A stretch of DNA of 64,000 bases from Iphione sp. A-MEVVRFRX5 (lineage: Eukaryota), in the NCBI GenBank assembly GCA_976226885.1, contig OZ320319.1, positions 34,410,001-34,474,000 on the forward strand, written 5' to 3'. Position numbers and translations under genes: made by a program. Shown one piece after another: positions 1 through 55,975 of the stretch. Under the pieces are notes generated by a model that was not told the DNA's origin, made no database searches, and worked only from the letters and a program-made list of their open reading frames with translations. Position 1 is the first letter of the stretch. The number at the start of each line of letters is the position of its first letter.

Positions 1-681
1 ATCTAGCACTCCGTGTCCGTTGGCCCCCGACATCAAATATTGGTCTAATTGTGGGTTTCACCGATTTTCTCAAAACCCACTTTACTGACAGACAGTGAAT
101 AACTACCAAATTACTCCATCTTGCCTCTAATTAGAAATAGCCTAATTAAGAACCCAAATACCTTCTCGATGAATGGCGTTGTCATGGCAACCTGTCCACC
201 ATCTCCCCCTGAAACTTTTCTAATTGTCCTGATTTTGGCGATTTTTGCATCGATTTGACATTGAAATCAGCGAATGATAGTTTTTGGCAGTAAATGACTG
301 TAAGAAGAGGCGGAGCCAGAGTAGAAGATTTAATCATTCATCTCGTTTCCCGTCTCGACTCGGCTAGCCACTGACCTCCCTGCTAGCTAAAGAACCTCTA
401 CCGAAGGCGAATGACGCCTTGAAAAACACAAGGCAATGCATTGTCATCTGGAATCACAATAATTTTGCCGTTGTCACGCTTATAAAATTAGCTTGAATGT
501 GACTTCACTTCAATCTCCATCTCAGGCATTTTTCTAGCATGTGATTATCCTTTTTAGAATTTCAAATTTGAAATTGCTAATCGAACCGAAGACGACCAGC
601 GAGGTTTAGAATAGTTAGATGTTTGCTGAAATCCGAAGCGCAAGATGCAATTTATCACGGATCGGCCTATCGCACCTTTAA
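1..681. mobile_element. Right end of a probable non-autonomous TTAA-targeting DNA transposon (Kolobok-like); left end outside the window
   Basis: The sequence ends ...GGCCTATCGCACCT|TTAA (CCT 675-677, TTAA 678-681), the terminal pattern of Kolobok-type elements. The interior is non-coding and contains a GTTGTCATGGCAAC palindrome (178-191). The partner TIR is not visible. Confidence 0.35.
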
Positions 682-35941: not shown

Positions 35942-38281
35942 CCTCGCGGTCGCCGTCGGCGCTTCGCCGCCTCCCGCTACTACTCGCCAAGTCTCTAAGC
36001 TGCTAAAACCCCGTACCCTGACCGTAACCTGCCCTACCTCTCTCCCTTTCCTTCTTCCACCAAACTCCTGTGTCCCTTCCCTGGGAAAGCCCACGGCTGA
36101 AATACTAGACCTTCAAGCATCCACTAACTGGGTGCCCAAGGTATTCTCATTGTATTTCCAGCGCACTTCGGACACGAACGCCTTCCATCGCTACGGTCTG
36201 GAGTTTGTGGAGATAGGGCAATACTTTATGTGATGCTGACTTAGTTGTATACATTGTCTTGTAGCAGAAAGGCATGGAATCTTTTGATCAATTCCAGCCT
36301 GCTTATCTGACTCTTTTGGTCAGGGTCTCAACATGAGCGGGGAGAGATTGTATTATTAGTATACAAAAGTGAAGACTTATATATTGATATATATTTATTA
36401 ACTCTGTATAGAACTGACAGATGGTGGGCAAAGAACGTATCTTTACTGTTGTAGTTTAGACGGTTTTGTGCGTGCGATGCCCGACTAGTGATGGTCATCT
36501 CGATCGTTCTGAATGTAGTGGCTCTGACCACGTGCAGGCCTCAAGGCCGGGCTCTAATGCGTCGAGCCGACTGCGACCGTCAGCAGAGGCGCTGGGATCC
36601 ACAGACAGAGCCATTTGGCACTGCTTTATCGGGATCGGCGGAAACCCAGCGAATCGGATAACGGAGCGTTGTTTATAATGGTTATTGTTTCAAACGAGGG
36701 CGGCCTCTGAAAATCCCGTAATTTAGGCGCGATCGATTAATCAGAAACATTTTAACCCCCTTACCCCCCCCCCCTCCCCGAACAGACACCAGCCCACTCG
36801 CCTGATCCTCCCCCATGACCCCCTTTTACCGGTGCCCGTCCACCCCCAAAGCGCCAGCCACCCGTTCGACGATTACGTTTCGGCGGATGTGGAGGCAAAA
36901 GAAAGCGGAATTCGACGCGGACGAAGAATCGGCACCGAAAACACGGCGCCGTGCCACGCGTCAATTAGACCCCTGTCAATCGCGTAATTCGGAAATATTC
37001 TAATTCCGAGGCAGATTCACTTTGCACGGGGTGCTGGGGCGGACAGCAATCTTGGGAGGAGGGTGAGTGCGACGGTTTTAGTGACGGAAACCGTCGTCTA
37101 GCCAAGATTTGTCGATTGTTGACCAGAGTTTCGTGATTTTCGCCTGCTTCTTGTTCACCACCTCACAATAGAGTATATATATTACACATACAAAGAAAGT
37201 ACCTCCAATACACCGACAGGTGTGCAGAAAATGCCTCAAACGTTGGGCGCCATGCTGCGGCCACTGGCGCCATTGTTGTTGATTGTCATTCTTAAGTTAG
37301 TGGTCAATCCTGACTATAGTTTGCTTACTTTACTTGAATATATTTCTGGTTTTTGGCAAAATTGTGTTCACCATCGGAATGCAAGATGAGTACCTCAGAT
37401 AGTTCTTCTTAGCTCATATTTTAGACGACAACCGACTGCCTCGAAACAGCACTACCCTCAAAGAATCTAGTGTTATATTATCATGTATCGATTGCGCATT
37501 TAGCATGGTCAAGTTACCGTATATATACGTATATCATAGGGTACCTCCGGCTGCCATAGCAACAAGCAAGCCTTCAAAAGGCACTCCTCATCATTATTGT
37601 GGCAGCTGTTTTGTGCTGTTCTGTATCTGTGTGTAGGTATAAGTATAGGGAGAGACCAGTAAGCTTATTGGATATCTGTGACAAGATCTGTGACGTCATA
37701 GTTCGCCTGGTGGACGTTTTACCAACTATTACCCCTCCCCCTACAACGTTGCTCCTTTGTTGTCTTGTCTTGCTTATCACGGTTGTCATGCTGTCTGGAA
37801 AACTGTATACACTTTGGCGCGATTTTGTGCGAATTTTAGATCGTTATAATGGTTCTTGTTGCAACAATATATGCTCAGGAGTCTGTGTAGTAGTCCCTAT
37901 TTTTTAGAAGCGGTCTACAACAATCCAGAGCCAGCCAAATAGGAAACATGCCTCAAGTTACAGGACCTCAGAAAGATAATTTGTTGTGGTTGCTACCATG
38001 TGGTATATGTAAGAGACATATGTTCAAGTCGTTTTGGAAAGTTTATAGTCTGCAGGAATTGTTCGAAGTTGTCATCACCAAGTGTGCAGACTTATTATAG
38101 ACTTAATATCAGCAAAGAGTTCCTGTTATTATAATTTTGAAAGATCAGACATAATATCAGTGGCATAGAGGTTGACGTTGTTTAACTTATTCATTTCCAT
38201 CAATACCTGCACAATTCGTTTTGAATGTGTTGCTGACGGACATTTCTAGAAAAGACTCTTCAGTTACCTGCTTTTCGATAG

Positions 38282-38540
38282 TGTAGTGCTGCTGCGGCAT
38301 GGCGCTCAGCTGCTGCATCCGGTGCAGCAGCTGCAGCGGCAGGGGGGTGCAGCTGCTGCATGCGGCATGATTTAGGCGGGAAATCAGAGAGAGGCTTGGG
38401 GTATATAAGGGGGATTTTGCCTTGCCAGTTGTTGTTCTTCGCTGGATACCTTACCTTTCACATCTTACTCTTGTTGAGCAATAAAGCTGACCTTCTTTAA
38501 CCTGCCGTTATGTCTTATTTGCGGAGTGGCAAACGCTACA
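38282..38540 (+). repeat. 5' LTR (259 bp)
   Basis: TGTAGT...CGCTACA; TATATAA 38402-38408, Inr-like CCAGTT 38425-38430, AATAAA 38480-38485; no differences from 48036-48294 found by eye. Confidence 0.97.
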
Positions 38541-40045
38541 TTGGTGGCAGCGGTGGGATTGAGGACCCACCGGCTGGTAGGAGACGTTCGGCAGGGAGAG
38601 GGGTGTCTGCACCTACGAGAGGAAAAGGGGTGGGACGCATAGCGCCTCCCCAAGACTGGGTTTCGAGTGAAGAAGAGACCCTGAGCTCGGACAGCGACAT
38701 CACGTTCGCGGAGATGGGCCGCAGAGGGACGGCCCGCAGCGGCACGGGTTCACCAGACCGCAGCGGCGATGCAGGACCATCGCACCGCAGCGGCACACTG
38801 GCTGACTGCCGCAGCGGATCTGGGGTCGCGAAGGGAGACTCGAGCGGGGTACGCCGCTGCGGCACCAACGCACCGCAAGGCCCCTCGGGCAGGGGGGCGG
38901 GAAGTGAACCGACCGGCGCCGCGGGCGCCGCAGCGGCCGGGGCCCCGCCGGTCCCGGGCCCTCGACCCATCCGAGGGGGTGCAACGGCCCGACCCCCAGT
39001 GAGCCCCAACCTGACTTCAACTGCGACGTCAACCCCCACCCCGTCCCCGACGGGGGCGACCGGGGGGGAAGGCGTGACACCGGCAGTACCGCCACACCAC
39101 CCCTCGGCGGGGGAGGAACTCGGCGCGGCGGAACCGGCCCACCTAGTGAGGGACTTGCTTTCGGAGCTCCAGTCAGCCCTCCGTCCACCGGCTCCGCCCC
39201 CTAAGCGATTCCATGTGAAGCCGGAGTCGTTCAACGGTAATGTACCGTTGGCGGAGTTCCTCCACCACTTCGGATTGGTGGCAAAAGCCAACCGCTGGGA
39301 GGAAGCCGAGCAGGCACTTCAGTTGAGTGTCTGCCTCCGCGGCTCCGCGCAGTCCGCCCTGCGGTCCGCAGCAGTGGACGTTACTGCGCCGGGAGCCTTC
39401 ACTCGTATCGTAGAGGTGCTTCGCCTCCGCTTCCAATCGGAGGATCGGGCAACTTACTACGAGCAAGAGCTAAAGCAACGTAAACAAGGGAAGGACGAGG
39501 ACGTACAGAAGCTCGCAGAAGAAGTGGAGCGGCTAGTCCGACAGGCATACCCGGAGGCGGAAGGGTCCTGGCTGGACCGAATGTGCCGCGACGCCTTCGT
39601 CTCGGCTCTTCGGGATGAACGGAGCCGGAGATGGGTGGTTCAGGCCAAGGCCCGGACCTTCCAATCTGCCATCTCGGAAGCGCTCCTGGCGGAGTCCTAC
39701 CACCGGGCCGAGAAAGAAAGGACATCCGGGGCTACAGCGAGCCGAGTGCATGCTGCGCAGACGGAGGCTCAGGAGGTTGCTGTAGCCAGCGCAAAACCCC
39801 CCCCCTCCTCTGGGCTGGAGAAAATCGAGAAGCTGCTGCTACAGCTACTGGAGCGACCGGTTGCGCCCTCAAGCACACCCTCTGCCGGAAAGAAAGGGGG
39901 GAAGAAGAACGGAGGCGAGGGCTGCTTCTTTTGTAAGCAGCCGGGCCACTTTAAGAGGGACTGCCCGGCACGGAAAGCGGCCGAGTCAGAGGCCACCCCC
40001 CCGACTCCACCGGAAAACGAGCAGCCGCCCGTCCCAGCGCAGTAG
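38510..40045 (+). CDS. gag: Gag (511 aa): disordered RSG/Pro-rich N-terminus, capsid-like domain, single CCHC zinc knuckle
   Basis: FHVKPESFNGNVPLAEFLHHFGLVAKANRW...LRGSA (gypsy capsid-like) and CFFCKQPGHFKRDC (CX2CX4HX4C). The first AUG after the TATA/Inr is 38510; an alternative Met lies near 38714. Confidence 0.93.
   Translation: MSYLRSGKRYIGGSGGIEDPPAGRRRSAGRGVSAPTRGKGVGRIAPPQDWVSSEEETLSSDSDITFAEMGRRGTARSGTGSPDRSGDAGPSHRSGTLADCRSGSGVAKGDSSGVRRCGTNAPQGPSGRGAGSEPTGAAGAAAAGAPPVPGPRPIRGGATARPPVSPNLTSTATSTPTPSPTGATGGEGVTPAVPPHHPSAGEELGAAEPAHLVRDLLSELQSALRPPAPPPKRFHVKPESFNGNVPLAEFLHHFGLVAKANRWEEAEQALQLSVCLRGSAQSALRSAAVDVTAPGAFTRIVEVLRLRFQSEDRATYYEQELKQRKQGKDEDVQKLAEEVERLVRQAYPEAEGSWLDRMCRDAFVSALRDERSRRWVVQAKARTFQSAISEALLAESYHRAEKERTSGATASRVHAAQTEAQEVAVASAKPPPSSGLEKIEKLLLQLLERPVAPSSTPSAGKKGGKKNGGEGCFFCKQPGHFKRDCPARKAAESEATPPTPPENEQPPVPAQ
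38542..38560 (+). promoter_or_regulatory. Primer-binding site, tRNA-Leu
   Basis: TGGTGGCAGCGGTGGGATT is complementary to the 3' end of metazoan tRNA-Leu(AAG/TAG) (...AAUCCCACCGCUGCCA-CCA); it starts 1 nt after the LTR. Confidence 0.88.
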
Positions 40046-40055
40046 GGCGGGCGGC
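40012..40055 (+). promoter_or_regulatory. Putative -1 programmed ribosomal frameshift signal (gag-pol)
   Basis: G_GAA_AAC in gag frame (40012-40018), a 5-nt spacer, then an 11-bp stem 40024-40034/40045-40055. The pol frame is -1 relative to gag and open from 39937. Confidence 0.72.
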
Positions 40056-40077
40056 GAACGCAGCAGAGACCCCCCTG

Positions 40078-43000
40078 ATGGCCCTGGCTTCCGCCGTGGA
40101 GGAAGAACCTTCGGTAGTCCTGGCGGGACGACGGCGGAAGGGCTGCAGCGGGGTGCTCCTGGAGGGGAGCTTAGCGGGAGTCTCGGTAGATTGGCTCATA
40201 GACACGGGGGCGTCGGCGTCCCTCTTGTCATCCCGGATATTCGAGACCTTGGAAGGGGTCCCGCTGGGACCGGTGGATGCTCGAGTATTTGGGGTGGATG
40301 GCGGAGCCTTACGGGTCCGAGGCTCCATTGAAGCGGAGGTCCAATTCGGACCAGTTTCGCTACCAGTTCGAGCAAAGGTAGTAGACATGGAGATCCCGGC
40401 GTTGCTGGGCCTGGACTGGCTAGACCGCTGGGGAGCAGCGGTTGACGCCAGGCTGGCCCAAGTTACGTTGAGACCTGGCCTTATAGATCGAGCGGCAAGC
40501 CTCCGTGCCCTCCGGGATCAGGAGATTCCGGCCGGGCAGACGGGCTGGGTCCAGGCGGAAGCGTGCGTGGGGAGCTTGGGCTCCCCGGAGGGAGTGACCA
40601 CGGCGAACCTCCGGTTTGAGGAACGCTCGGGGCTGCGGGTAGCCCAGGCTGTGGTCAAGCCCGAGGGAGGACGAGTGTGGGTCCCTGTATGGAACCCAGG
40701 TCCGCAGTTGGCGCGCGTTTTCGGGGGGACACGACTCGCAGAATATCAACCAGTGGATGTCCTGGCAGGCGCGGTCAGCGCTGCGGAAGAAGGAGTGGAA
40801 CAGGACGAGGCGGTGCAACTCCTACTCAGACAACTCCCCGAACACTTGTCCGCGGAGGATCGGGAACGTATCGGAGGCATGTTGCGGGAAAACAAAGAGG
40901 TGTTCCAAACAGAGAGCGGGCCCCTCGGCTGCAATCCTGAGGTACAGCATCGGATAGACACGCAGGGCCATCCACCCATCCGACAGAGGGCTCGGAGGCT
41001 ACCACCCCATAAACGGGCGGTGGTACAGGAAGAGATCGACAAGATGGTGGGGAAGGGGGTGTTGGAAGCCTCCACTAGCCCCTGGGCATCGCCATTAGTG
41101 CTGGTGCAGAAGAAGGATGGGGGTGTGCGCTTCTGCATCGACTATCGGAAGCTTAACCAGGTCACCAAGAAGGATGCATACCCGCTTCCCCGCATAGACG
41201 ACACGTTAGACGCGCTACAGGGCAGCAAGTACTTCTCCGCCATCGACCTGGCCAGTGGGTACTGGCAGGTCCGGATGGCCCCGGAGGACGCGGAGAAAAC
41301 GGCCGTATGCACACCTGTGGGGCTGTACCAGTTCCGGGTGATGCCCTTCGGGCTGTGCAACGCCCCATCGACCTTCGAGAGGTTGATGGAGGCCGTCCTC
41401 CGGGGTCTGGTGGGCCTGGAGTGCCTAGTTTACCTAGACGATGTGATCGTCTTGGGGCGGTCGGTGGAGGAAATGTGTGCCCGACTGAACACCGTATTCC
41501 GTCGCCTGCGGGAGGCGGGCCTGCGGGTCAAGGCAAAGAAGTGTCAACTGTTCCGACGGGAGGTGGACTACTTAGGCCATCGGGTGTCCGAGGAAGGAGT
41601 GGGGGTCGACCCGGAAAAGGTCCGGGCCATCGTGGAATGGCCTCGCCCCCGCTGCTCGGCGGAGGTCCGCAGCTTCCTGGGGCTTTGCTCCTATTATAGG
41701 AGCTTTGTGCAAGGTTTTGCCACCATCGCCTCTCCGTTGCACTCCCTCGCGGACAAAGCGGCCGAGTTCCGCTGGACCGAGGCCTGCCAGGAGGCTTTTG
41801 AGCGGCTGAAACTACAACTAGCCTCCACGCCAATCCTGGGGTACCCGGCCCCTCGTGGCCGGCTACTGCTCGACACCGACGCTTCTGACACCGGGGTCGG
41901 GGCGGTCCTCTCGCAGGAACAAGGGGAACAGGAACGCGTGTTGGCCTATGCCAGCCGTACTCTCACCCGCCAGGAGCGCAATTATTGCGTTACCCGAAGA
42001 GAGTTGCTGGCCGTGGTGTTCGCACTCAGAAAATTCCGTTGCTATGTGAACGGCCGCCAGCTGGAGATTCGAACTGACCACGACTCCTTGAAGTGGCTGT
42101 GTAACTTCCGGGAGCCTCAAGGCCAGCTGGCGCGCTGGTTAGAGGAGGTGTTCTGCCACGATGTGCAGATCAAGCACCGCCCTGGACGCCAGCACGCTAA
42201 CGCGGATGCCCTTTCCCGACAAGAGTGTAAACAATGTGGCCGGCGGGGAGAGGCCGAGGAAGAACGCGCCGCCGCCGTCGCAGTAAGAGGAGTGGTGGGA
42301 GGTCCCGAGCTGGCAGCGGCACAGAGAGAAGAACCCACGACGGCAGAATTACTCACCGCCCTCGAGGAAGGACAAGCTATTCCGGGTCTGCGCCTGGGGT
42401 TAACTTGGGAAGAGAGGCAACTGCGCTCGGAGGGGGATCGTTTGGCCCAGCGAGAGGGAATCCTGATCCGGCGCTGGGAGAGAGAGGACGGGCAGGTGGT
42501 GCCGCAAGCCTATGTCCCCAAGACGCTGCGGAAGGCCCTCTGGCAAGAGGCCCATGCAGGGGCTCTGGGGGGCCATTTGGGAGCGGAGAAGACCGGAGCG
42601 ATGCTGAGGATGCGTTGGTTCTGGCCAGGAATGTCGCGGGACATAGAGCGTTGGAGCCGGTGCTGCAAGGCCTGCCAACAACGGAAGGGGCCAGGGTGGA
42701 AACGCCGAGCCCCCCTACAGAGGCGCCCGGTAGCGGAGCCGTGGGAGATACTGGCTGTCGACATCTTGGGGCCACTTCCGATCACCACCCGCGGCCACCG
42801 CTATATCCTGGTAGTTGCTGACCACTTTTCGAAGTGGACAGAGGCCTTCCCCCTCGCGGAGGCCACAGCAGTCGCCACGGCCGAAGTGATCATCCGAGAA
42901 ATTGTATGCCGGTTCGGACCCCCCCGGGTCCTGCATTCCGACCAAGGCCGCAATTTCGAGGCAGCCCTGTTCGCAGAGGTGCTCCATCTGCTTGGAATCG

Positions 43001-46000
43001 AGAAGTCGCGCACGACCCCTTACCACCCTCAGGCAGATGGGGTGGTGGAGCGATTTAATCGCACCTTGGGGAATATGCTCGGGACCCTGGCGGAGGAGCG
43101 GCACCAGGACTGGGACCTGGCGTTGCCATTTGTGATGGCCGCCTACCGTGCGACCCCACACAGCGCTACGGGAGAGTCCCCCAACTGGGTGTTGCTGCAC
43201 CGAGAGGTCACCCTGCCGATTGAATTACGCTATGGACACCCAGGACCGACGCCGGTCGAACGGGGGGAGTATACGAGCAGACTGGAGGAGGAAGTTCGCT
43301 CCGCCCACGAGCGGGTAGCGACGCGACTCAGCCGCGTAGCCGCCCACCAGAAAGATTGGTACGACCGGAAGGTGCGTCCGCAGTCGTATCATGAAGGGCA
43401 GAAGGTGTGGCTGTTTACCCCGTTACGGAAAAAGGGCGTCTCCCCAAAACTACAGAGTTGGTGGGAGGGCCCGTGGGTAGTGGAAAAGGCACTGTCCCCA
43501 GTCGTGTATCGAGTCAGCCGGGCGAAGAGGAAACGGGTAGTCCACGCCGATCGGCTGAAGCCAGCCCACTTGGACCCACACATCACCTGCAGAGGTAGGG
43601 ATGAGCCGCTGCGGAACGACCCATGCCGCAGCGGCAATCCGACAGAGGGCAGCATGAGTCTGGCCAGGACCGCCACTATAAGTACCCTCCCCCTACCAGA
43701 CTCCCCCCCACGTCACGGTAGGCTACGCGAGGAACTTAGGATACCGCAGCGGCACAAGATCGTTGTCGACAAGGAAGACTACATACCGCTGCGGAACTAT
43801 TCCAAACTAGAGGGCGCTGCGGTCTACACTTCCGCCGCTGCTGTTGCATATCACGCTCGTGGCCCTGTATCGTTCGTCAAGGAGGTCAACTGGTTGAAAA
43901 TACCGGCATTTTCCGCCAGACAAGGGGTCTGGCCGCTGCACAGCTCCCCTAGGACTTCCGCTGCGCCTCGTACCCCTTCAACAATCACGCCCCACGAGGT
44001 GAGCTGTATTATTCATTTTGGCATGGGCGATATTACGGGTAAGCAAGCTAGACCGCGTTGGATTAATGGGCTCGGCCGAGCCGCAGCGGCTGTCAAGTAT
44101 GATCGAATTGTACGGGTTGGGGGTACCGCTGCAGAAGGGGCCACGTGGAACCGATTCTCACACGGCTATCTCTCTTCCGCAGCGAGGTGGGCGTGCCGCG
44201 CCGGCACCACGTGCAGCCGATTGATCCCGCTCCGCCGCGGCAGCACCCAAGCGTCACGAAGAAGTCCTACGCACCGCAGCGGCATATCCGACGGCACCAC
44301 CCGGTCGGCTAGTACAGAGAGGGTCCCCACCGTCGCCGCCGCAGAAGGACTTCCCGCCCTCCCTATACCGGCGCCCGCCGCAGCGGACCTCAAGAGTGCC
44401 ACCTCCCCGGGTCGTGCTGCAGCGGCACGGTCCACCGAAGTACGCCGTCGCAACCGCTACCCTCATCGTTCGTGGAGGAGTGAGCGGAGCCGCTGTGCCA
44501 TGGCAGAGGAAGGGTCTTCGTCCTCCTCGTCTCCCGCATCATCGCCCCCGTCTTCGCCGGAGAGGCCGGAGAGGCCGGACCAACCACGCCCCTTCGTCTG
44601 CCCCCTCTGTGGAGTGGGCTTTTCCCTACAATCCAACCTCAACCGGCACCACGGGGATGTCCACCTCCCAGAGGGCTTCGGCTGGTTGTGCCCGGTGGAA
44701 GCATGTGGTCAACAGGCATTCCACAGGCGCACGGACTGGAAGCGCCATCTTTTGCACGTTCACAGTCCCAACGACTTCTTGTTTACAGTAGATGTGGGCT
44801 ACTTGCGCTTCTGGGGGCTCAACCCGACCCGCGGAGAGCGCCGGCTGTGTCCCGCCAGCCTGGAGGGTGAGTTTCGCCGGCGGCAGAAAGTTGAGGCTCG
44901 AAACCGCCAACGAGAACGCCGGGCGGGGCTGGGGATCGGCGGCTCAGGCAAGACCAAGCGGAAGAAGAACACTGAGGGATGCAACACTACTGCCACTCCT
45001 AATCCGCCGCCGGCCGGAGGAGGGGATCCCGGTACACCCCTGCAGGACGAGAGGCCAACGGAACCTGGGCCGCCACCTACTGACGCCTCTCGACCAAGCG
45101 GAAGTTCATCAGCCGGGGGCGAGCCACAGCCCTCAACGTCCACCGGGACAGCGACGCCCGCCGGGTCGAGGGCGATCGGCGGCGAGAAAAAGAAGAAGAA
45201 GAAGAAAGCCTCCCGGCCGCAGGTCACCTCCCCAGGGGGGAAGCGGGCACGACGCCGCATGGGAGTGGTGGCCCGGGATTGGCAGGCGACTGCCCCTCAT
45301 TCGACGGGCCAGGCAGCCGCCCCCTCTTGTCATTGCTCCGCCAGCGCCCCTGGAGTGCGTGCAGTTACTGTAGCGGAGGGGACGGCACCGAGAGATGCGA
45401 CCGCCGGGGGCGGGCCCCGGACCCCCTTGGCCACTCCACCCACTACTAGCGGGTCCGAGAGAGACGGAACGTCTCAGGGAGACAGTACGCCAGCTGCGGC
45501 GTACTCTGGACCGGCGCTTCCGTCCCGCTATGAACGCGGGGTGGCGCGGCGCACCTACGGCCGCACGCCACCAGAGGTAGCCCGGCCGCGTACGCCGCCC
45601 CCGCCTCCCCGGGTGACCACACCAGGAGACATTGACCTCCCCGGGACGACCCACGTACGACGTCTCTTCGAGGACGAAGACGGGGAGCCTATTCCAACGG
45701 CTGACGATGCGGCACAGATATTGGTGTCCTTGGCTGGGCCGGCCAAGTTGTCACCCCTTCCACCTACGACAGGAGCCAGACCATCGATGGGTCGCGGTAA
45801 TGACCGTACGCCCGTGGGAGGGACTAGGCAGGTGGGAATTCGTGCCACCTTCCGCACCAAAGACAGCAACAGGGGTGCCCGGTCTCCCTCTCCGCTGCGC
45901 CGGCCCGGTCGCAGTCGTGGAGTCACTCGCCGCTCCACGCCCCCACGCCCCGGAGCGTGCCCGACCCCGCAGGAGGAGGCGGACCGGCAGTTAGACCTGC

Positions 46001-47895
46001 GCCTGGGGCCGGGATGGACCCGACCACCAGAAGACTCGGAGGTGGTAGATTTAGTTACCCCCCCGGGCTCACCAAAGGCCCCCCCGCCGAAGAAAACTAA
46101 GGCTGCCGGGGTAGGGACAACTCCGGGCAAGGACCATACCTCCACCGCCCAACAGAAACAGGACACAGCCCAGCTGGCGACGTGCGCCGAGGCCGACCCC
46201 ATCCCGTCTACCATGGGAGAGGAGGTGTCTTCGGCAGGGGAGGAGCTGAGCGATCACGACGCGACGGAATTGAAGGAGGTGCTGCGAGCCGTCCAAACGA
46301 TAGAGCCGCATGGGACCCCCGACCCGGCGGCGCCAAGAGCCCGGCCCGTCGCCCAGCCCACGACACCTGCGCGGGTGGAAGGGACCACTCCGGTCGCAAT
46401 GGCCGAACCAGAACCCCCGGGCGGAGAGGAGGCCGGAGATTCAGAAACGGAGTTGAAGGAGGTATTGCGGGTCACACAGACCCGGGCTGACACCGATGAG
46501 ACTCGCCCCACCCCGCGTACCCCGCCTGGTGTGCCCGTCCCGGAGAGACCCCTTCACCCTAGCCAGACACCTGGAACGCTCCCGGGGCTCGTGCGTCCAT
46601 GGGAATCAGCCCTCCCACCAACGGATCCGGGGCTCTCGGGGCCGAGTGCCCCCCCAGACAGCCTGACCGGCGCGCCGGTCGAAACGTCCAGGCCGGAGGG
46701 GGTAGGACCCGTGTCCGGAGAACAGGAGAACATGGCTCACCCGCCAGAGAGCACCGAACCGATGGAGACAGAGGGATCACCCCCGCAGGGGGCAGAGGGG
46801 CCTGTTTCGGCCCGGCCCCAGGAGGAGGCGCCACCTGAGGAGCCTACAGGACCATCTGTGGCGGGCCTGAGTCACCCTACGGAGGCGACGACAGAGCCGG
46901 GGGAGGACCTCGAGCCAATGGACACCGACCTGCCGCCCACGTCCACAGAGGAGACCACACAGCCCGCCTCAGTCATCGTAGCCGGTGGAAGAGAGGGCGA
47001 CGAACCCCCGGACGTGGCAGAAGAGTCGACCCCCTCGTCCCCCCAGACCGACCAGGTGGTCAGACCGACGGCACCGGTCGGGCAGACATCCCCGCCGGAC
47101 GACGGGTCGACCACAGCAGAAGACCCTGGTGCGTTACCCCGACTGGATGTAGGGATCGGACATTCGGACCACTTTATCCAGACCGACCCCCCCACACTTC
47201 CCCGTGAGGATCGTCCAGTGGCACCCGACAATGGTACGGCGACGGACCACGTATCAGCACTGCCAGGAGACTCGCCCCGGGACGAGCACAACCCTGGAGT
47301 ACCACCGGGAGGGAGTTCAGACCGGCCAGCGCCCTTGGGACCTCGCCTCCCACCACATTCTACGCCGGCTCGGCCCAGTGGGATTGGCGTCCGGCCGCCA
47401 CTAGGGTCTCCCCTCGCACGAGTGTCGCCGGCACCGGCTCCGGGAGGAATTCGGCCCGTACGTAGCCTGCTCAACTCGCCGATGCTCCAGGACATTTCTG
47501 GCCCGACTGCTCCGGAAGAGGAGGTACCTGACGCGGTGTACGCGTGGGCCGCGTCCCGGGTTATCTCCCCGGAATCGGCAGTGCCGGCCGGCTGGATGGT
47601 GTTGAGTAATGCGTCATCATTGGACTTGCAAGTTCTTACGCAGGGGCAGGTCAGAGTAGTGATCAAGCAAGTGGTGAGATTCCGCCGTTTGGGGGCCCCG
47701 ATCGCCGGCAGCTCCCTCTCGCGCTGGTATGGTAATCACGGGACAGTACTGACCAGGGGGCGGCCGGTGCGACGTCTAGCCTCCTGGCAGGAGGAGCCCG
47801 TAGAACTGGGAGGAGCAGATGTCACCATTAAAGAAATATGGACGGTATTTCTGAACGCCGAACAGCCAGACCTCGATTCACTGTCGTCGCAGTAG
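40078..47895 (+). CDS. pol: Pol polyprotein frame (2605 aa from the first Met; probably entered by frameshift): protease, RT, RNase H, integrase, plus an in-frame ~1,440-aa C-terminal extension
   Basis: Protease WLIDTG (DTG 40201-40209); RT FCIDYRKLN and YLDD (41431-41442); RNase H DTDASD (41872) and NYCVTRRELLAVV; integrase HHCC (42553-42675), D 42760, D 42940, E 43048; GPY/F WEGPW (about 43465); no stop until 47893. Confidence 0.96.
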   Translation: MALASAVEEEPSVVLAGRRRKGCSGVLLEGSLAGVSVDWLIDTGASASLLSSRIFETLEGVPLGPVDARVFGVDGGALRVRGSIEAEVQFGPVSLPVRAKVVDMEIPALLGLDWLDRWGAAVDARLAQVTLRPGLIDRAASLRALRDQEIPAGQTGWVQAEACVGSLGSPEGVTTANLRFEERSGLRVAQAVVKPEGGRVWVPVWNPGPQLARVFGGTRLAEYQPVDVLAGAVSAAEEGVEQDEAVQLLLRQLPEHLSAEDRERIGGMLRENKEVFQTESGPLGCNPEVQHRIDTQGHPPIRQRARRLPPHKRAVVQEEIDKMVGKGVLEASTSPWASPLVLVQKKDGGVRFCIDYRKLNQVTKKDAYPLPRIDDTLDALQGSKYFSAIDLASGYWQVRMAPEDAEKTAVCTPVGLYQFRVMPFGLCNAPSTFERLMEAVLRGLVGLECLVYLDDVIVLGRSVEEMCARLNTVFRRLREAGLRVKAKKCQLFRREVDYLGHRVSEEGVGVDPEKVRAIVEWPRPRCSAEVRSFLGLCSYYRSFVQGFATIASPLHSLADKAAEFRWTEACQEAFERLKLQLASTPILGYPAPRGRLLLDTDASDTGVGAVLSQEQGEQERVLAYASRTLTRQERNYCVTRRELLAVVFALRKFRCYVNGRQLEIRTDHDSLKWLCNFREPQGQLARWLEEVFCHDVQIKHRPGRQHANADALSRQECKQCGRRGEAEEERAAAVAVRGVVGGPELAAAQREEPTTAELLTALEEGQAIPGLRLGLTWEERQLRSEGDRLAQREGILIRRWEREDGQVVPQAYVPKTLRKALWQEAHAGALGGHLGAEKTGAMLRMRWFWPGMSRDIERWSRCCKACQQRKGPGWKRRAPLQRRPVAEPWEILAVDILGPLPITTRGHRYILVVADHFSKWTEAFPLAEATAVATAEVIIREIVCRFGPPRVLHSDQGRNFEAALFAEVLHLLGIEKSRTTPYHPQADGVVERFNRTLGNMLGTLAEERHQDWDLALPFVMAAYRATPHSATGESPNWVLLHREVTLPIELRYGHPGPTPVERGEYTSRLEEEVRSAHERVATRLSRVAAHQKDWYDRKVRPQSYHEGQKVWLFTPLRKKGVSPKLQSWWEGPWVVEKALSPVVYRVSRAKRKRVVHADRLKPAHLDPHITCRGRDEPLRNDPCRSGNPTEGSMSLARTATISTLPLPDSPPRHGRLREELRIPQRHKIVVDKEDYIPLRNYSKLEGAAVYTSAAAVAYHARGPVSFVKEVNWLKIPAFSARQGVWPLHSSPRTSAAPRTPSTITPHEVSCIIHFGMGDITGKQARPRWINGLGRAAAAVKYDRIVRVGGTAAEGATWNRFSHGYLSSAARWACRAGTTCSRLIPLRRGSTQASRRSPTHRSGISDGTTRSASTERVPTVAAAEGLPALPIPAPAAADLKSATSPGRAAAARSTEVRRRNRYPHRSWRSERSRCAMAEEGSSSSSSPASSPPSSPERPERPDQPRPFVCPLCGVGFSLQSNLNRHHGDVHLPEGFGWLCPVEACGQQAFHRRTDWKRHLLHVHSPNDFLFTVDVGYLRFWGLNPTRGERRLCPASLEGEFRRRQKVEARNRQRERRAGLGIGGSGKTKRKKNTEGCNTTATPNPPPAGGGDPGTPLQDERPTEPGPPPTDASRPSGSSSAGGEPQPSTSTGTATPAGSRAIGGEKKKKKKKASRPQVTSPGGKRARRRMGVVARDWQATAPHSTGQAAAPSCHCSASAPGVRAVTVAEGTAPRDATAGGGPRTPLATPPTTSGSERDGTSQGDSTPAAAYSGPALPSRYERGVARRTYGRTPPEVARPRTPPPPPRVTTPGDIDLPGTTHVRRLFEDEDGEPIPTADDAAQILVSLAGPAKLSPLPPTTGARPSMGRGNDRTPVGGTRQVGIRATFRTKDSNRGARSPSPLRRPGRSRGVTRRSTPPRPGACPTPQEEADRQLDLRLGPGWTRPPEDSEVVDLVTPPGSPKAPPPKKTKAAGVGTTPGKDHTSTAQQKQDTAQLATCAEADPIPSTMGEEVSSAGEELSDHDATELKEVLRAVQTIEPHGTPDPAAPRARPVAQPTTPARVEGTTPVAMAEPEPPGGEEAGDSETELKEVLRVTQTRADTDETRPTPRTPPGVPVPERPLHPSQTPGTLPGLVRPWESALPPTDPGLSGPSAPPDSLTGAPVETSRPEGVGPVSGEQENMAHPPESTEPMETEGSPPQGAEGPVSARPQEEAPPEEPTGPSVAGLSHPTEATTEPGEDLEPMDTDLPPTSTEETTQPASVIVAGGREGDEPPDVAEESTPSSPQTDQVVRPTAPVGQTSPPDDGSTTAEDPGALPRLDVGIGHSDHFIQTDPPTLPREDRPVAPDNGTATDHVSALPGDSPRDEHNPGVPPGGSSDRPAPLGPRLPPHSTPARPSGIGVRPPLGSPLARVSPAPAPGGIRPVRSLLNSPMLQDISGPTAPEEEVPDAVYAWAASRVISPESAVPAGWMVLSNASSLDLQVLTQGQVRVVIKQVVRFRRLGAPIAGSSLSRWYGNHGTVLTRGRPVRRLASWQEEPVELGGADVTIKEIWTVFLNAEQPDLDSLSSQ
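44500..47895 (+). CDS. ORF3-like cargo in the pol frame (1131 aa from GCCATGG): tandem C2H2 zinc fingers, poly-Lys NLS, Pro-rich linker, unknown C-terminal domain
   Basis: ZF1 CPLCGVGFSLQSNLNRHHGDVH (44599-44664), ZF2 CPVEACGQQAFHRRTDWKRHLLHVH (44689-44763), K7 at 45187-45207. A strong Kozak ATG lies at 44500; its use as an independent start is inferred. Confidence 0.7.
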   Translation: MAEEGSSSSSSPASSPPSSPERPERPDQPRPFVCPLCGVGFSLQSNLNRHHGDVHLPEGFGWLCPVEACGQQAFHRRTDWKRHLLHVHSPNDFLFTVDVGYLRFWGLNPTRGERRLCPASLEGEFRRRQKVEARNRQRERRAGLGIGGSGKTKRKKNTEGCNTTATPNPPPAGGGDPGTPLQDERPTEPGPPPTDASRPSGSSSAGGEPQPSTSTGTATPAGSRAIGGEKKKKKKKASRPQVTSPGGKRARRRMGVVARDWQATAPHSTGQAAAPSCHCSASAPGVRAVTVAEGTAPRDATAGGGPRTPLATPPTTSGSERDGTSQGDSTPAAAYSGPALPSRYERGVARRTYGRTPPEVARPRTPPPPPRVTTPGDIDLPGTTHVRRLFEDEDGEPIPTADDAAQILVSLAGPAKLSPLPPTTGARPSMGRGNDRTPVGGTRQVGIRATFRTKDSNRGARSPSPLRRPGRSRGVTRRSTPPRPGACPTPQEEADRQLDLRLGPGWTRPPEDSEVVDLVTPPGSPKAPPPKKTKAAGVGTTPGKDHTSTAQQKQDTAQLATCAEADPIPSTMGEEVSSAGEELSDHDATELKEVLRAVQTIEPHGTPDPAAPRARPVAQPTTPARVEGTTPVAMAEPEPPGGEEAGDSETELKEVLRVTQTRADTDETRPTPRTPPGVPVPERPLHPSQTPGTLPGLVRPWESALPPTDPGLSGPSAPPDSLTGAPVETSRPEGVGPVSGEQENMAHPPESTEPMETEGSPPQGAEGPVSARPQEEAPPEEPTGPSVAGLSHPTEATTEPGEDLEPMDTDLPPTSTEETTQPASVIVAGGREGDEPPDVAEESTPSSPQTDQVVRPTAPVGQTSPPDDGSTTAEDPGALPRLDVGIGHSDHFIQTDPPTLPREDRPVAPDNGTATDHVSALPGDSPRDEHNPGVPPGGSSDRPAPLGPRLPPHSTPARPSGIGVRPPLGSPLARVSPAPAPGGIRPVRSLLNSPMLQDISGPTAPEEEVPDAVYAWAASRVISPESAVPAGWMVLSNASSLDLQVLTQGQVRVVIKQVVRFRRLGAPIAGSSLSRWYGNHGTVLTRGRPVRRLASWQEEPVELGGADVTIKEIWTVFLNAEQPDLDSLSSQ

Positions 47896-48022
47896 GGAGC
47901 CTTTGGGCCGCGCCCTACGGTTGATGGTCACGGAAAATTGACACGGCTCGTCTTGGACTCTTTTTGTTGTGCATGTTACTTGGACGTTGTGTTGTTGACG
48001 CGCTTGGGGGCAAGCGCATCTT

Positions 48023-48035
48023 AAGAGGAGGGCAG
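48023..48035 (+). promoter_or_regulatory. Polypurine tract
   Basis: AAGAGGAGGGCAG immediately 5' of the 3' LTR. Confidence 0.85.
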
Positions 48036-48294
48036 TGTAGTGCTGCTGCGGCATGGCGCTCAGCTGCTGCATCCGGTGCAGCAGCTGCAGCGGCAGGGGG
48101 GTGCAGCTGCTGCATGCGGCATGATTTAGGCGGGAAATCAGAGAGAGGCTTGGGGTATATAAGGGGGATTTTGCCTTGCCAGTTGTTGTTCTTCGCTGGA
48201 TACCTTACCTTTCACATCTTACTCTTGTTGAGCAATAAAGCTGACCTTCTTTAACCTGCCGTTATGTCTTATTTGCGGAGTGGCAAACGCTACA
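48036..48294 (+). repeat. 3' LTR (259 bp)
   Basis: Matches 38282-38540 and is followed by the ATAG TSD. Confidence 0.97.
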
Positions 48295-51200
48295 ATAGAT
48301 TAAAGCTCGACCCTTGTTCCTGAACGAAGTTCAGTGAAAGCATTTGGCACCAGAAACCTTTTAGAGGATGTTTGATGACACTGTGTGTATTTCACTTGAT
48401 GAAGCTAATTTAAGATACTATAGAGTTCTCACCAGCTAAACTTTAGTAAGTGCGTTCCATTTTACACTCAATATGCATCAAAGATTGCCAATCCAGGGAT
48501 TTAGCTTTTGGTTTTTGAAACTGCAAAGGTTTTAATCTAAATTCACCTGGGAAATGTCAGCGTGCAGTGGTAATAATCTTAACTTAAGGTAAGGGGGAAA
48601 GTAAATATCAGAATCTACGAGGAATCTGTCAGATGTTGTATCTGTCCTTAGCTGGAAACTGTTTGCACTCAATGAAGAAAGCCACATTATTGCAGCAACA
48701 GTAGCGAGTATTTTGTCAGTTGCGCTCAACCTGCGCGGAACTACATCTCAGCGATGCGGTCTCAACATGATGAATCCATACAAAAAGGAGTTCTTGGTTG
48801 CCATGGCGACGCAATTTGAGAAAAAGGGTTGGAAACATTGTATTTTGTCACAATAAATGTTAAAACACTGTATTATATTAGCAGCGTTATCCAGTGTGAG
48901 AGCTTTTGGAGACTGTTGACGATTCCAATGTAATTTCTCATTTCGTTGCGCACACGCAGCGGAGGTTTACTGATTTTCTTCCTTCCGGTAAGACGCCACC
49001 TCACGGCACCAGTGGACATAGAAGTGCCTTGTCACGGTTTTGAAGATTGCCAACAGCCATATTAGCAATGGCGAAGAGAATCCAAGCTGAAAAATATGAA
49101 TTAACTGCAATAGCGGAATTCGGAGTTATCACATAGACGCTGTTTTCTATCTTGTGAAATGTTCCTTTGCCACATTTACAAATGCTTCGAGTATCGTCAG
49201 CATCGCGAGCCAAGATTGTGTTACTCCAGCTAAGTCAAGCATATCTTTCCTGTAGTATGAGATGTTTCAAATGTCGATTTTTATTTATTCCAGTCATTAA
49301 ATCCAACCTTCATTCAGTAGCACCATTCTTCCCATATCTGAATGCCCAAGGGACATTTCAAATATCCTCTTCAACTCAGTTCTCCAACACTAAATAAGAA
49401 TTTTTCTATTCAAGTGTGCTATCAAAATGTCCAGATGCTTGACACATGACCACTAGGTTTAAGGTGTGTACCTACCTCTGTGAACTGGACTTTCTTACAT
49501 CTTCAGATTGTGCCCTAACAGAAAACTCTTGCTTACTACTGCGCTATGGTTCAAGTTATCATACAAAACGGCTCGTATATTTTTCACGGGGATATTAGAA
49601 TTGTAAATAATTAGTCTTCATTACCCTGACCTCCTCGCTTGCTGTGTGATCAGTGCAGTCGATGCTATCTGCATCGGCTTTCGAAGTAAATGTTAGAGTT
49701 TAATGGGAATGGCCGGGTCTTCTTTTATTTCATCTTTGTGTTTGGTATAAAGTACCAAGTCTAGCAAGCGAGGATGGGAGTTATTGTGTACATACAGCAG
49801 TCATTCCTTATTGTGAGAATGCAATGTTTTTCATATTCAACAAGTGTTATGACGTTTGTCTCGCGATATATTGTGTTTTGGTCAAATGATGTTGGTTGTG
49901 GCGTACTTCACCCATCGGAAGTGATCGGTTTCTCTATCGAAGTGATCATTGCTTAGAGAAATACCGCTGGTCCATTGTTCAGTTTTTCTTAATGAAATCG
50001 CAAAGCACACCTAATCTTTTTGAGGTAAGATAGTTAATTCGTAGTTCTACGCTGCTTGCGTATTGGAACATGAAAGATTTATCATTTTGCCTAATAAAAT
50101 ATTTACTGAAAACCCATCTATTGTCTCTGAATACCGGAGACCGATACATTAACCTGCCATTCCATTATCATAAAAAGAGTGCATCGTAGTAAAGGACAGT
50201 TATGCCTTAAGGAAGATTTTCACCTCTGCAAGGTACGCCTATTGTGTTACTGTAAGTCAATAGTATATAGAGGAATTTCATTTAGTGAGGACTGTTGACA
50301 ATGCACGTGAAAACATTTCTATGCGGCAACCATCATGCTTTGTATTATTACATAATTTTCTAATCATTTGTCTATTATCCTTCATCGAGCCAAACTATCA
50401 GACGTGCAACGCGTGGTCCTATCATGTATGTTCACCCATTATACAGAATGCCGATCGACAGACAGAACGTTGAGAATAAATATATGTAATATATTTCAAA
50501 TGGTCGTCCAGTGGTTTCCTTTATATGTGTTTGGATCACCACACTTATCTTCATCCATGCATTCATGTAAGATGATATCCAGAAATCGAAAAAATCTATA
50601 TATGCACATTTTGAGAATTTGACGAAACACGTGCATAGAGCATTTCTTGATCTGGCCCATCTTTTTGTCACTATGATCGTTTTAATCCTTATAATTATAA
50701 GGACAAACCCCCCAAAATGCAACGTGTCATATCGCCTCACTATACAAACAGATACACTGCACATGAACACGTGTATCCCCCATAGTATGACAATCGCCAG
50801 GGTGTTCTTCCTTGCATTGCTTCTAGATAGAAACTTCACGCCAACGGGCACTGATCCAAGGAGGACCTGGTTTTGTACGGAAGCCCAAATAGACACAAAC
50901 TTAATTTTCTCTTTTGATAGTGAAACTAAATCGTGTTTGTATGAATAGGAAATTTAATGCGTTTTTGAAGAAGAAATAATTAGAAAGGCCATACTCATCA
51001 ACTCAGGTTGCAGTTGACATAATTTTCACTACTTTACAATGAAAATTATTTCATCATGTTTATATAAACCGATCCAGTTTACATCATAGAGTGAGAAAAA
51101 CACACATGCTGCTACCATTTCATTATAAACTATGCATTTTCATTGACTGTCTACAGAGGATGTCTTCTGTTTCACACACTTGAGCGCCCCAGTTGAAGGG

Positions 51201-53260: not shown

Positions 53261-55574
53261 CACAGTCACCGAGAGGGAAACGTCTAAATACGTCCTGCAT
53301 TCAGTGGTGTTGGGCATGTTACATGACAGACAAGTCTTAGTGGTGCTAAGAAAGAGCACTTCGGTGCCAGGCTTTGTAACATGAACCTTCGACCGAACAG
53401 TAAAAATGAACGTCTATGAAAAGCTTGAAAACTACAACCTTTGTAGTCACGCTATTCTCTGAAGCACCATCCAACAAAGTTAAATTCACCGTCAACTCCT
53501 GTTTTGTAACCCCGATGGACGTAAACTTCTTTTAGTCGAGCGACGTTTGTATCTTATAGGTAGTTTCAATGCATGTGCGCTTCTTTCAGATTTAGCTTTC
53601 ATGTCAACTGTTCAGGTAGTTTGTATGATTTGAGCATGATGCGTGTATCATTGTTCCTTGAACGTTTTGTCAAAGAACTGCTTTGCGTAGTTTTGATGTT
53701 TTAGGGAGTAATCTATTACCGACCTGTTTGAAAGCGAGGGTTTGTTATACCGTCATTTTCCCCGTTCATCCTCCGTATTTAAGAAAAAACCCCTTTGAAA
53801 ATTCCTGCGACACATTGCACATACGATACGTTGAACTGTATAAATGCAAACTCCTGTAGTTGTCGACGGTTTTGTTTGATATAGAAGTTTAGGGAGAATG
53901 TTGAATCAAATATAACCATTCAGAGTGCGCGGTGTTTATTCAACTACAATGCATTTACATAATACAGACGCATACAGGCACTGGAATGGACATAGACCTA
54001 AAGAAATTACATGTACAGGAAATATACAAATAATACAATCATATGAACAAAATAAACATTTAAATGTTGTTCAAATTGGCAATGTATTTTACGTTAAAAC
54101 ATCTCTGGCTGATGGATTTGCATTGAAAGATGCAGATATGATTTTTTTATCTCTATTGAAAAGCATTGGAAAGTACGGATGCGGCAAAAATAGAACGTGG
54201 GAAATCATGTGCAGAAGGGTCTTGTTGCTTCACATTATTTAACCATTTAAAACCCCGGAACCTGACAGTTCCCATAATATCTTTAGGTCTCCTTTCGGTA
54301 AATCAGACCCAAAACATGCATAAAACTGCGACTGAGCAATTGCGTATTGAAATTACATACGCAAATTACAAAGCTACATTTTATCCCGAATGATTTATGC
54401 CTTAGAAAACTACATCCCATTGCATTACAAAACTAATAGTATGATTAAAATTCGAACATATGTAATAAGTACAATGTACACGGTTACATGCACTTATATC
54501 CTTACAAACACTGAATAAATATCTACTACACTATCAAACTCAGGAAAAGGGGTGCAAGGATTTCAGTTATACATATTTGCTAGTGAAAGCATGAGGATCC
54601 AGTTTTAGGGTATTTAAGTGTACCGTACGCAGTCTATACACGAGCATTTGAAGAAGGTCGAACCTGTCCCACGTACACCATATCTGGCTCTTAGAAACCC
54701 TATCTGAGCATACTACTCACCCAGTCAGCATTAATGAAACTTTTGCAGTGTTGGTCTATTTGAGTTTGCTCCAGTTATAATAAATTTGATCCAGGTGATA
54801 AACTTATTGCAGGGGAAATCTATCTGTTCTTGAAGCAGCTGATGACTGTACACATTCTTTTTCTTAACCCTCTCCCCTTTCTTCCCCTTCCCCTCATTCA
54901 TCTCTGTTTTTGATCTTCTTTTGCCTTCCTCTCTACTGGTCTTCTCTCACTCACGCCCTCCTTTTCTACCCTTCCCTAGTGTTAGATTATAGACCCCCAG
55001 AAATATTTATGTCTAATTCAGTTTTCATTTTATATGATAATGTATGTACCTACAATTGATATGTATGAAATGATTCAAAACATATACAATAATTATAATA
55101 GTGACAACACAGTGTAAAGATAAATAAGAATATATTTTATATGCAGTTTCAAAGTACAGTTATAGATGAATGTGAATGTTGATATATATGAAAATGTATT
55201 TTGTGAAGGAGTTTCAGTATTTCCTGTAAAATGTCAATGGCAAAAGGAGTATTCAATACAAAAGAAGTAAAGCATAATTCCCTTTAAACAAAAGCCTTGA
55301 ATAAAAGACCTTTGCATGCAGGTCTATTCAGGCCTTGAGCTACATCTATTGAGAAAAGCTTTAACAGCCAGACTCTCTAACCAACTAGGTTCCCTTTCTC
55401 CACAGCCAGGCAAAAAATAAAGCCATTATTATTCTAAAAACCAACATGAAAAATATTTTAGGTGGTCACACCAAAATATTCACCTTACTACAACAAGAGT
55501 AAACCTGGTTCTAATATGAGAGAAACCCTACTTCAGGTTTTAGAACCCTTTAGGCTAGGGTAGCCCCAGGGGTT

Positions 55575-55975
55575 GACCCAGATACACAGTGAGAGAAAAA
55601 CAATACTCATTTCAACAAGAAAGCATTTTAAAAAGGTTTGACAAAATACGCACGTTAATAAAACCTTAATAAACATGACTCCAACATGAATGAAATCCCA
55701 GTTTTGGTTCTAAAACCTGTAGCCTAGGGTACACCTCCTAGGTCAGGTCCTAATGCCTATAGCCTAGGGGAAACCCAGATATACAACCTGACGAAAACAA
55801 TACTCATTTCAACAAGAAAAATGTTTTCGAAAGGTTTTGCAAGATATTCACCTTAATACAGCCATAGTAAGCATGGCTTTAACATGAATGAAACTCCAGA
55901 TTTGGTTCTAAAGCATATAGCCCAGGCTACACCTACCAGGTAGGTTCCAGTGCCTATAGCCCAGGGAACACCCTT
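55575..55975 (+). repeat. Degenerate two-unit tandem duplication, period about 197 bp
   Basis: AAAACAATACTCATTTCAACAAGA recurs 197 nt apart (CAATACTC at 55601 and 55798); AACATGAATGAAA and TTGGTTCTAAA also recur at about the same spacing. Confidence 0.75.

Follow-up and report, generated by a model that had tools for sequence, protein, structure and literature searches.

The window (the whole 64,000-nucleotide stretch of DNA analysed) holds a Ty3/Gypsy retrotransposon whose integrase runs on, in the same open frame, into a selected "cargo" protein with a pair of C2H2 zinc fingers. The best reading of this arrangement, predicted from sequence, is that the element encodes a self-activating circuit resembling that of the foamy viruses; its probability is put at roughly 0.5. 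That the cargo is, in one way or another, a regulator binding the DNA of its own element is probable: activation or relief of silencing is an even bet, and repression is rather unlikely.

The element is a Ty3/Gypsy LTR retrotransposon by its LTRs, primer-binding site, polypurine tract, target-site duplication and gag/protease-RT-RNase H-integrase order. It is complete (38282-48294): the 5' LTR (259 nt, TG..CA; 38282-38540, + strand) is identical to the 3' LTR (48036-48294, +), an ATAG target-site duplication (unstranded) lies at 38278-38281 and again at 48295-48298, and the primer-binding site (38542-38559, +), which we take to be of the tRNA-Leu type, and the polypurine tract (48023-48035, +) are both present. 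Identical LTRs and an open frame bear out the first-pass annotation, which had called the element young and intact. The 5' LTR contains TATATAA at 38402, AATAAA at 38480 and, in U3, TGCGG half-sites at 38293 and 38361. Gag (38510-40045, +) has a CCHC knuckle and a weak Retrotrans_gag match; its first ATG lies inside U5 (38510-38560) and its frame reads through the primer-binding site. A U5 ATG coding M..LRSG/LRNG is visible in the LTRs of all lineages of the family but F, whose 5' stretch ended early. Pol and cargo occupy a single frame of 2,646 aa (39955-47895, +), -1 relative to gag; GGAAAAC in the gag/pol overlap (40012-40018) is probably a -1 frameshift site. Protease, RT, RNase H and integrase (H2C2, rve, p58_C/GPY-F) follow in Gypsy order (40162-43563, +; Pfam), from protease to the p58/GPY-F end at residues 70-1203 of the frame. 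The nearest database Pols are ~45% identical in integrase, several of them labelled "412-related" by their sources. A host gene of the NAB (NGFI-A-binding) type has exons nearby (2800-31362, +), with NCD1 SAM pieces near 2819-2905 and 6316-6486 and NCD2 pieces at 28771-28899 and 31222-31362; the Gypsy element lies ~7 kb beyond these exons. A degenerate repeat with a period of ~198 bp is also found in the window, as are two long microsatellites of GGA (55472-55948, 2958-3050, 16581-16625).

Integrase ends in VHADRLKP at 43540-43563 and the frame stays open for a further 1,443 residues, much as first annotated (a GPY/F end followed by about 1,440 open codons). The remaining five frames across 43570-47895 contain 22-48 stops apiece, and of 2,000 base shuffles made for each tail segment, 0 to 0.9% leave a frame without stops. 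The two fingers (44599-44763, +) and the basic runs downstream are located where they had been claimed. Finger 1 (CX2C..HX4H) occupies 44599-44664 and finger 2 (CX4C..HX4H) 44689-44763, with LQSNLNR and RRTDWKR at helix positions -1..6; the eight Cys2His2 ligands are invariant in all 13 representatives. Pfam zf-C2H2 picks up finger 1 only, at an E of 2e-4 that is under the family cut-off; a profile search with the finger domain matches solved C2H2 proteins, and an AlphaFold model (mean pLDDT 86.9) folds both fingers, followed by a hairpin and a long helix of 25 residues. Ligands, profile matches and predicted beta-beta-alpha fold together make this a C2H2 zinc-finger pair. Next come a conserved extension comprising the beta-hairpin and long basic helix (44764-44922, +) and the basic runs KTKRKKN (44950-44970) and K7 (45187-45207; both +), which are candidate nuclear localisation signals. 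Short islands (RTY, RRLF, LGPGW and VVDLVTPP; 45547-46101, +), maintained across lineages A-F, punctuate the disordered part and presumably resemble cyclin-docking and SUMO-interaction motifs. An acidic, Pro/Ser/Thr-rich disordered region (45955-47484, +), net charge -46, is a candidate activation region.

What the first-pass annotation took for a hydrophobic C-terminal block is real, and it is better described as a conserved, folded alpha/beta domain of no recognised family (47485-47853, +): the last 120 residues are modelled confidently (pLDDT 84.8) and are present in 13 of 13 representatives. Foldseek returned no match to this model at E<=0.001. The best VIA match (Z 6.8, rmsd 4.2, 102 residues aligned) is below the level at which it would mean anything; the leading VIA folds are phage tail-completion and ferredoxin-like. 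Nothing significant emerged from Pfam or PDB sequences, the best Atlas score was 0.79, and the only two matches of the domain's profile to 1.84 billion representatives are unrelated repeat proteins. In chromoviruses and errantiviruses the extra module after integrase is, respectively, a chromodomain and an Env. As had been noted at first pass, the cargo has neither a transmembrane stretch (best 19-residue hydropathy 1.04) nor, in a Pfam search, an env or chromodomain family. Errantivirus is rejected on the missing env family and transmembrane helix, and chromovirus on an integrase C-terminus in which Pfam sees no chromodomain.

The finger domain matches at least 150 places in the genome. Fifty elements were fetched, the first 20 from DNA matches (omitting nine of the top 30, mostly more decayed ones) and the later 30 picked for long frames, so that the sample overstates intactness. 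Among the 30 best DNA matches, to which long-frame selection does not apply, 20 have the fingers in frame with integrase (19 recognised by pattern, plus L013), and 21 of the first 41 loci are open from protease through the C-terminal domain. The fetched elements fall into eight lineages, A-H; identity to the window copy, where matched, is 78-100% in RT, 35-100% in the finger domain and 34-100% in the C-terminal domain. Identity within LTR pairs is 93.5-100%, with no difference at all in 11 of 39 pairs, which implies that several lineages moved recently. CpG observed/expected is 0.52-0.86, as would suit an invertebrate. A search for finger-less Gypsy elements among 30 loci matching the integrase C-terminal domain (PF22938) returned the cargo family in 29, and the family may therefore dominate Gypsy elements of this type in the genome. 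Several lineage-E copies adjoin GCAT/ACAT sites at their start (L191, L195 and L198, at the 5' LTR), and the F copy sits within a 768-bp duplicated flank (L186/L196).

Is the tail a protein under selection or a passenger? In six pairs of copies, dN/dS is 0.03-0.06 in pol and 0.17-0.35 in the disordered part; in the finger domain it is 0.01-0.11 in five pairs, the sixth being saturated, and in the C-terminal domain 0-0.06 in five, with the sixth again saturated; the linker gives 0.36-0.66. Three additional pairs agree with this pattern, and the overall linker range is 0.36-0.69. Values this low mark the tail as a selected protein. The comparison of sibling copies proposed at first pass thus shows a frame that is kept and fingers with dN/dS <1, and shows neither a stop behind integrase with a neutrally drifting tail nor fingers peculiar to one copy. 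A recent, unselected host capture in the window copy retains virtually no probability. It is refuted by a family of eight lineages and no fewer than 150 copies, by dN/dS values well under 1, and by the same finger pair in a sister Pol of different source. In the pairs L181 vs L182, L187 vs L190 and window copy vs L044, synonymous divergence is far higher in cargo than in pol (E1/E2: 0.21 in pol vs 1.7-2.4 in cargo), which suggests that pol has been swapped by recombination, with cargo and 3' end travelling together.

That sister is P0023, one of 85 long Pol relatives, with the same layout and a 1,152-aa tail containing the finger pair (E 5.6e-13 against the family profile, in a 90-protein set). 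RT-RH-IN trees place it beside the cargo family with SH-aLRT of 99 and 97 (quick trees, with a long branch), and its fingers, searched against the genome of the window, find the cargo family as best matches. In six other Pols (P0022, P0026, P0028, P0030, P0032 and P0037) the frame continues past integrase into one C2H2-like finger, each with a Met ahead of it, and a tail that is acidic; the five placed in the tree lie in a clade distinct from the cargo family. A further protein match to the finger region, P0003, proved to be a host finger array. The finger region matched nothing among shorter proteins, its Atlas matches are generic C2H2 clusters, and scanning metagenome contigs and viral contigs for the finger pattern gave 83 and 19 candidates, respectively, none confirmed; 66 metagenome loci with a related integrase, on contigs many of which end early, match neither the finger pair nor the C-terminal domain.

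The first-pass annotation also described a disordered linker, and the disordered region is where it had been placed. Overlooked were promoter- and splice-like DNA signals in the 310 codons with which the tail opens. This stretch (43564-44499, +) appears to serve two uses: it is an open frame, and it contains seven CCGC-W-GCGG palindromes together with a predicted promoter, intron and leader. In the window a predicted internal TATA box (CTATAAG, 43677-43682, +) is followed by a predicted 184-nt intron (43999-44182, +; GAG|GTGAGC ... TCTTCCGCAG|) within which three upstream ATGs lie; the first ATG beyond it, GCCATGG at 44500, opens a predicted stand-alone ORF of 1,131 aa (44500-47895, +). The residues that are conserved in this otherwise drifting linker (EVS/EVR/QVS; SSAAR) are those that splice consensus sequences encode. 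A VAGGTRAG donor is found in 38 of 38 scored copies (38 of 41, the other three dropped because either the LTR pair or the end of integrase was not located); 29 of the 38 have TATAA upstream of the donor (all of A, B and D, and 0 of 9 in C), and in 28 of these 29 the interval from TATA+25 to the donor is free of ATGs. In 12 representatives TATAA/TATATA occurs eight times in 13.4 kb of linker vs three times in 63.8 kb of pol and cargo (2 and 1); strict acceptors number seven in linker and one each in pol and cargo, and donors 10 in the linker's 13.4 kb, one in 29.6 kb of pol and seven in 34.2 kb of cargo. All seven representatives with a TATA-like box have an ATG-free predicted leader (chance 0.002-0.21 each), and the five introns among them contain 1-5 ATGs each. 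The signals vary: lineages G and H have CCAAT and a TATA-like box and no clear intron, and lineages C and E have the donor and lack TATAA. Predicted intron lengths are 3n+1 in eight of eight representatives, with acceptors picked by eye and A-D coordinates one codon off; this pattern partly follows from shared descent. Splicing would close the pol frame ahead of the cargo ATG, so that one fused frame would become two genes. Given TATA box, donor, acceptor and ATG-free leader, the cargo is likely also a gene of its own, with a predicted internal promoter, an intron and a start at 44500.

A predicted intron kept in 38 of 38 scored copies raises another matter: the element has to export its RNA unspliced. 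RNA binding is known for some C2H2 fingers, and the cargo might be a Rev-like factor that sits on the clusters in unspliced RNA and either promotes export or prevents splicing, allowing the genome to be packaged with its intron. Just such a role is described, in the accessible portion of PMC10309623, for CERV of Caenorhabditis elegans Cer1, a nuclear protein from a spliced mRNA, encoded at the same position, that acts in genomic-RNA export; it takes in exons from the gag frame and has a possible C4 finger. Compared by description, no C2H2 pair or DNA motif is given for CERV in that portion (PMC10309623). Three features of the cargo family make an RNA factor unlikely nonetheless: 1) In the targeting and RNA ALTERNATIVES, linker RNA structure was no higher than in shuffles (z -1.1), and only three of 28 200-nt windows, in C1 and D1, fell under -2. 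2) The motif lies on both strands and also upstream of the LTR TATA box. 3) The invariant finger residues are at DNA-contact helix positions.

The motif in question is TGCGG. When every 5- and 6-mer is scored by the lowest enrichment that it reaches in any of seven representatives, TGCGG comes first in U3 and, among 6-mers, TGCGGC comes first in U3, 5' gag and linker. The linkers of the seven hold 10-23 TGCGG against 3.2-5.4 expected, an excess that survives synonymous recoding in six of seven and involves several frames and both strands; pol and cargo are at expectation, the cargo of D2 excepted. Held-out lineages conform in U3 (observed/expected 6/1.1 in F, 2/0.3 in G, 2/0.1 in H) and show a linker excess at p 0.03-0.06, values that are not independent, since the lineages share ancestry. 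In the window, 13 of 14 CCGC-W-GCGG palindromes lie within 5' gag (six of them clustered at 38719-38936, unstranded) and the linker; U3 contains none, and its two half-sites vs 0.6 expected are not significant alone (p about 0.1). Half-sites form inverted repeats whose spacing differs by lineage (1 nt in A-C, 5 nt in D, 4-5 nt in G), which suggests a dimer: the cargo protein would probably bind TGCGG in that form.

Do the fingers read the motif? All 13 representatives have R-1, D3 and R6 in finger 2, and 11 of the 13 have N3 and R6 in finger 1. The C2H2 recognition code, which we assume to hold for these fingers, predicts the target GCG-G(A)N. TGCGG would fit, with a match at GCGG and a weaker one at the next base: the base 3' of GCGG is usually C, where N3 predicts A. 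The two finger-1 exceptions, without N3/R6, make up lineage E, in which finger 1 is relaxed (dN 0.26-0.28 vs 0.04-0.07 in finger 2). Lineage E also has no TGCGG excess anywhere (0 and 0 in U3; 4 vs 4.9 and 6 vs 4.3 expected in the linker); its U3 is rich in GTGCA, a departure from the code, though finger 2 is kept. In the pol tree E is nested, as sister to C, and a constraint placing it outside is rejected (p-AU 1.5e-4); a cargo-only tree does not separate C, E and the rest, and the E group was named after the tree had been seen. Lineage E is thus one natural experiment, read from sequence, with the outcome in the predicted direction: finger-1 contacts and TGCGG clusters are lost together. These clusters and their joint loss lend indirect support to the first-pass idea of a nuclear DNA-binding autoregulator or anti-silencer.

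The reader of the motif could, of course, be a host factor, with the cargo a selected nuclear protein directed at other targets, for instance chromatin proteins or the silencing genes of the host. GC-rich motifs are common as host sites, the motif matches the recognition code imperfectly and the co-change is that of a single lineage. A host reader is nevertheless improbable: the motif is lost exactly where the finger-1 contacts are lost, and half-site spacing is lineage-specific.

A further alternative, also put forward at first pass, keeps the cargo on integrase, where it would steer insertion in the manner of a chromodomain. The in-frame fusion, kept in 20 of the 30 best DNA matches, speaks for it, as do the 28 linker lengths (750 to 1,875 nt, all in frame, mostly measured in continuous frames) and the linker's dN/dS below 1. 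The insertion sites speak against it. The duplications at 39 of them follow N-T-A-N, 36 having T at position 2 and 36 having A at position 3; the DNA there is AT-rich, and neither GCGG (1.4 per kb within 200 bp vs 4.0 per kb in host DNA of the window) nor TGCGG (0.7 vs 0.86) is enriched. Flanks that lack the motif argue against guidance by the fingers and lend no support to the first-pass proposal of targeting by them, and the own-gene signals would be superfluous; such a module is distinctly improbable.

How might the self-activating circuit, as the preferred reading, run? The predicted internal promoter would, at a basal level, give a spliced mRNA read from ATG 44500, and hence cargo protein, which, probably as a dimer, would bind the TGCGG clusters of U3, 5' gag and the internal promoter. 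It would then raise its own output first and that of the LTR next, as Tas does in foamy viruses (PMC7390438, in the part available). Unspliced RNA would give the Pol-cargo polyprotein, which, more speculatively, may carry the regulator into the nucleus with the new copy; that particles deliver the regulator, or that the long RNA is shielded from decay, is guesswork. Self-activation by itself does not account for a linker kept open in frame; that it is kept open implies that the Pol-cargo form is also selected. Internal-promoter transcription, splicing, DNA binding, dimerisation and activation over repression we infer. That a complete circuit in the style of the complex retroviruses evolved in an env-less animal Gypsy lineage, comprising an internal promoter, a spliced mRNA for a C2H2 transactivator whose C-terminal fold is new, sites coevolving with the fingers, and a splice switch that also sets whether the activator travels on integrase into new copies, is a tentative proposal, somewhat against the odds.

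The same gene and the same DNA target could also serve a repressor that binds the clusters at both promoters and limits family expression and copy number: neither the motif nor the own-gene signals reveal the sign of regulation, some clusters sit downstream of the LTR start, and an island that we take to be SUMO-interaction-like is present in nine of 13 representatives. It is the large acidic Pro/Ser/Thr region, and a family still expanding (11 of 39 LTR pairs identical), that make activation the better guess; the two-promoter layout, moreover, parallels a positive loop already known (PMC7390438, as far as its accessible text goes).

In that loop a second promoter near the foamy virus 3' end drives Tas/Bel1, which binds sites in U3 and in the internal promoter, a circuit that the accessible text calls unique to foamy viruses (PMC7390438). 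If the self-activating circuit holds, the likeness lies in an internal promoter that drives a regulator with sites in both promoters. The differences are that the cargo family, read from sequence alone, is env-less Ty3/Gypsy, with a C2H2 regulator in frame with pol, and that one motif is common to both promoters here, whereas Tas sites are described, in the part of PMC7390438 available, as little related. Membership of Spumaretrovirinae is rejected: there is no env gene to hold the internal promoter.

Precedents exist for each part: besides Tas and CERV, there are the internal promoters of Tor elements and the anti-silencers VANC and TnpA. The Gypsy-like Tor3b/4b of Oikopleura have a third gene driven by an internal promoter, which, by the available text (PMC4402516), encodes a membrane Env; the window cargo has no transmembrane stretch. 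VANC (VANDAL) and TnpA (Spm) are transposon-encoded, sequence-specific anti-silencers that act on clustered motifs in cognate copies; as described in the portion consulted, they belong to plant DNA transposons, have other DNA-binding folds and have demonstrated demethylation (bioRxiv 10.64898/2026.08.24.746577), and the word "retrotransposon" is absent from the main text of that paper. Extra ORFs of other Gypsy elements encode a GDSL esterase, a DEDDy exonuclease, a coiled coil or unknown antisense products, and no C2H2 pair was found among them in the accessible parts of PMC5408684, PMC7998251 and PMC7264820. Searchable full text, which takes in few subscription papers, yielded no description of a Gypsy-encoded C2H2 regulator.

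What would it mean? In this family a retrotransposon appears to turn C2H2 fingers, best known as host weapons against retroelements, to its own use. If the reading is true, this Gypsy element of invertebrate type would show that simple LTR elements can independently evolve an internal-promoter circuit of the foamy type, and the circuit could explain the continued activity of the cargo family. Its eight lineages, with their different fingers and motifs, are a ready test of the co-evolution of a factor with its sites.
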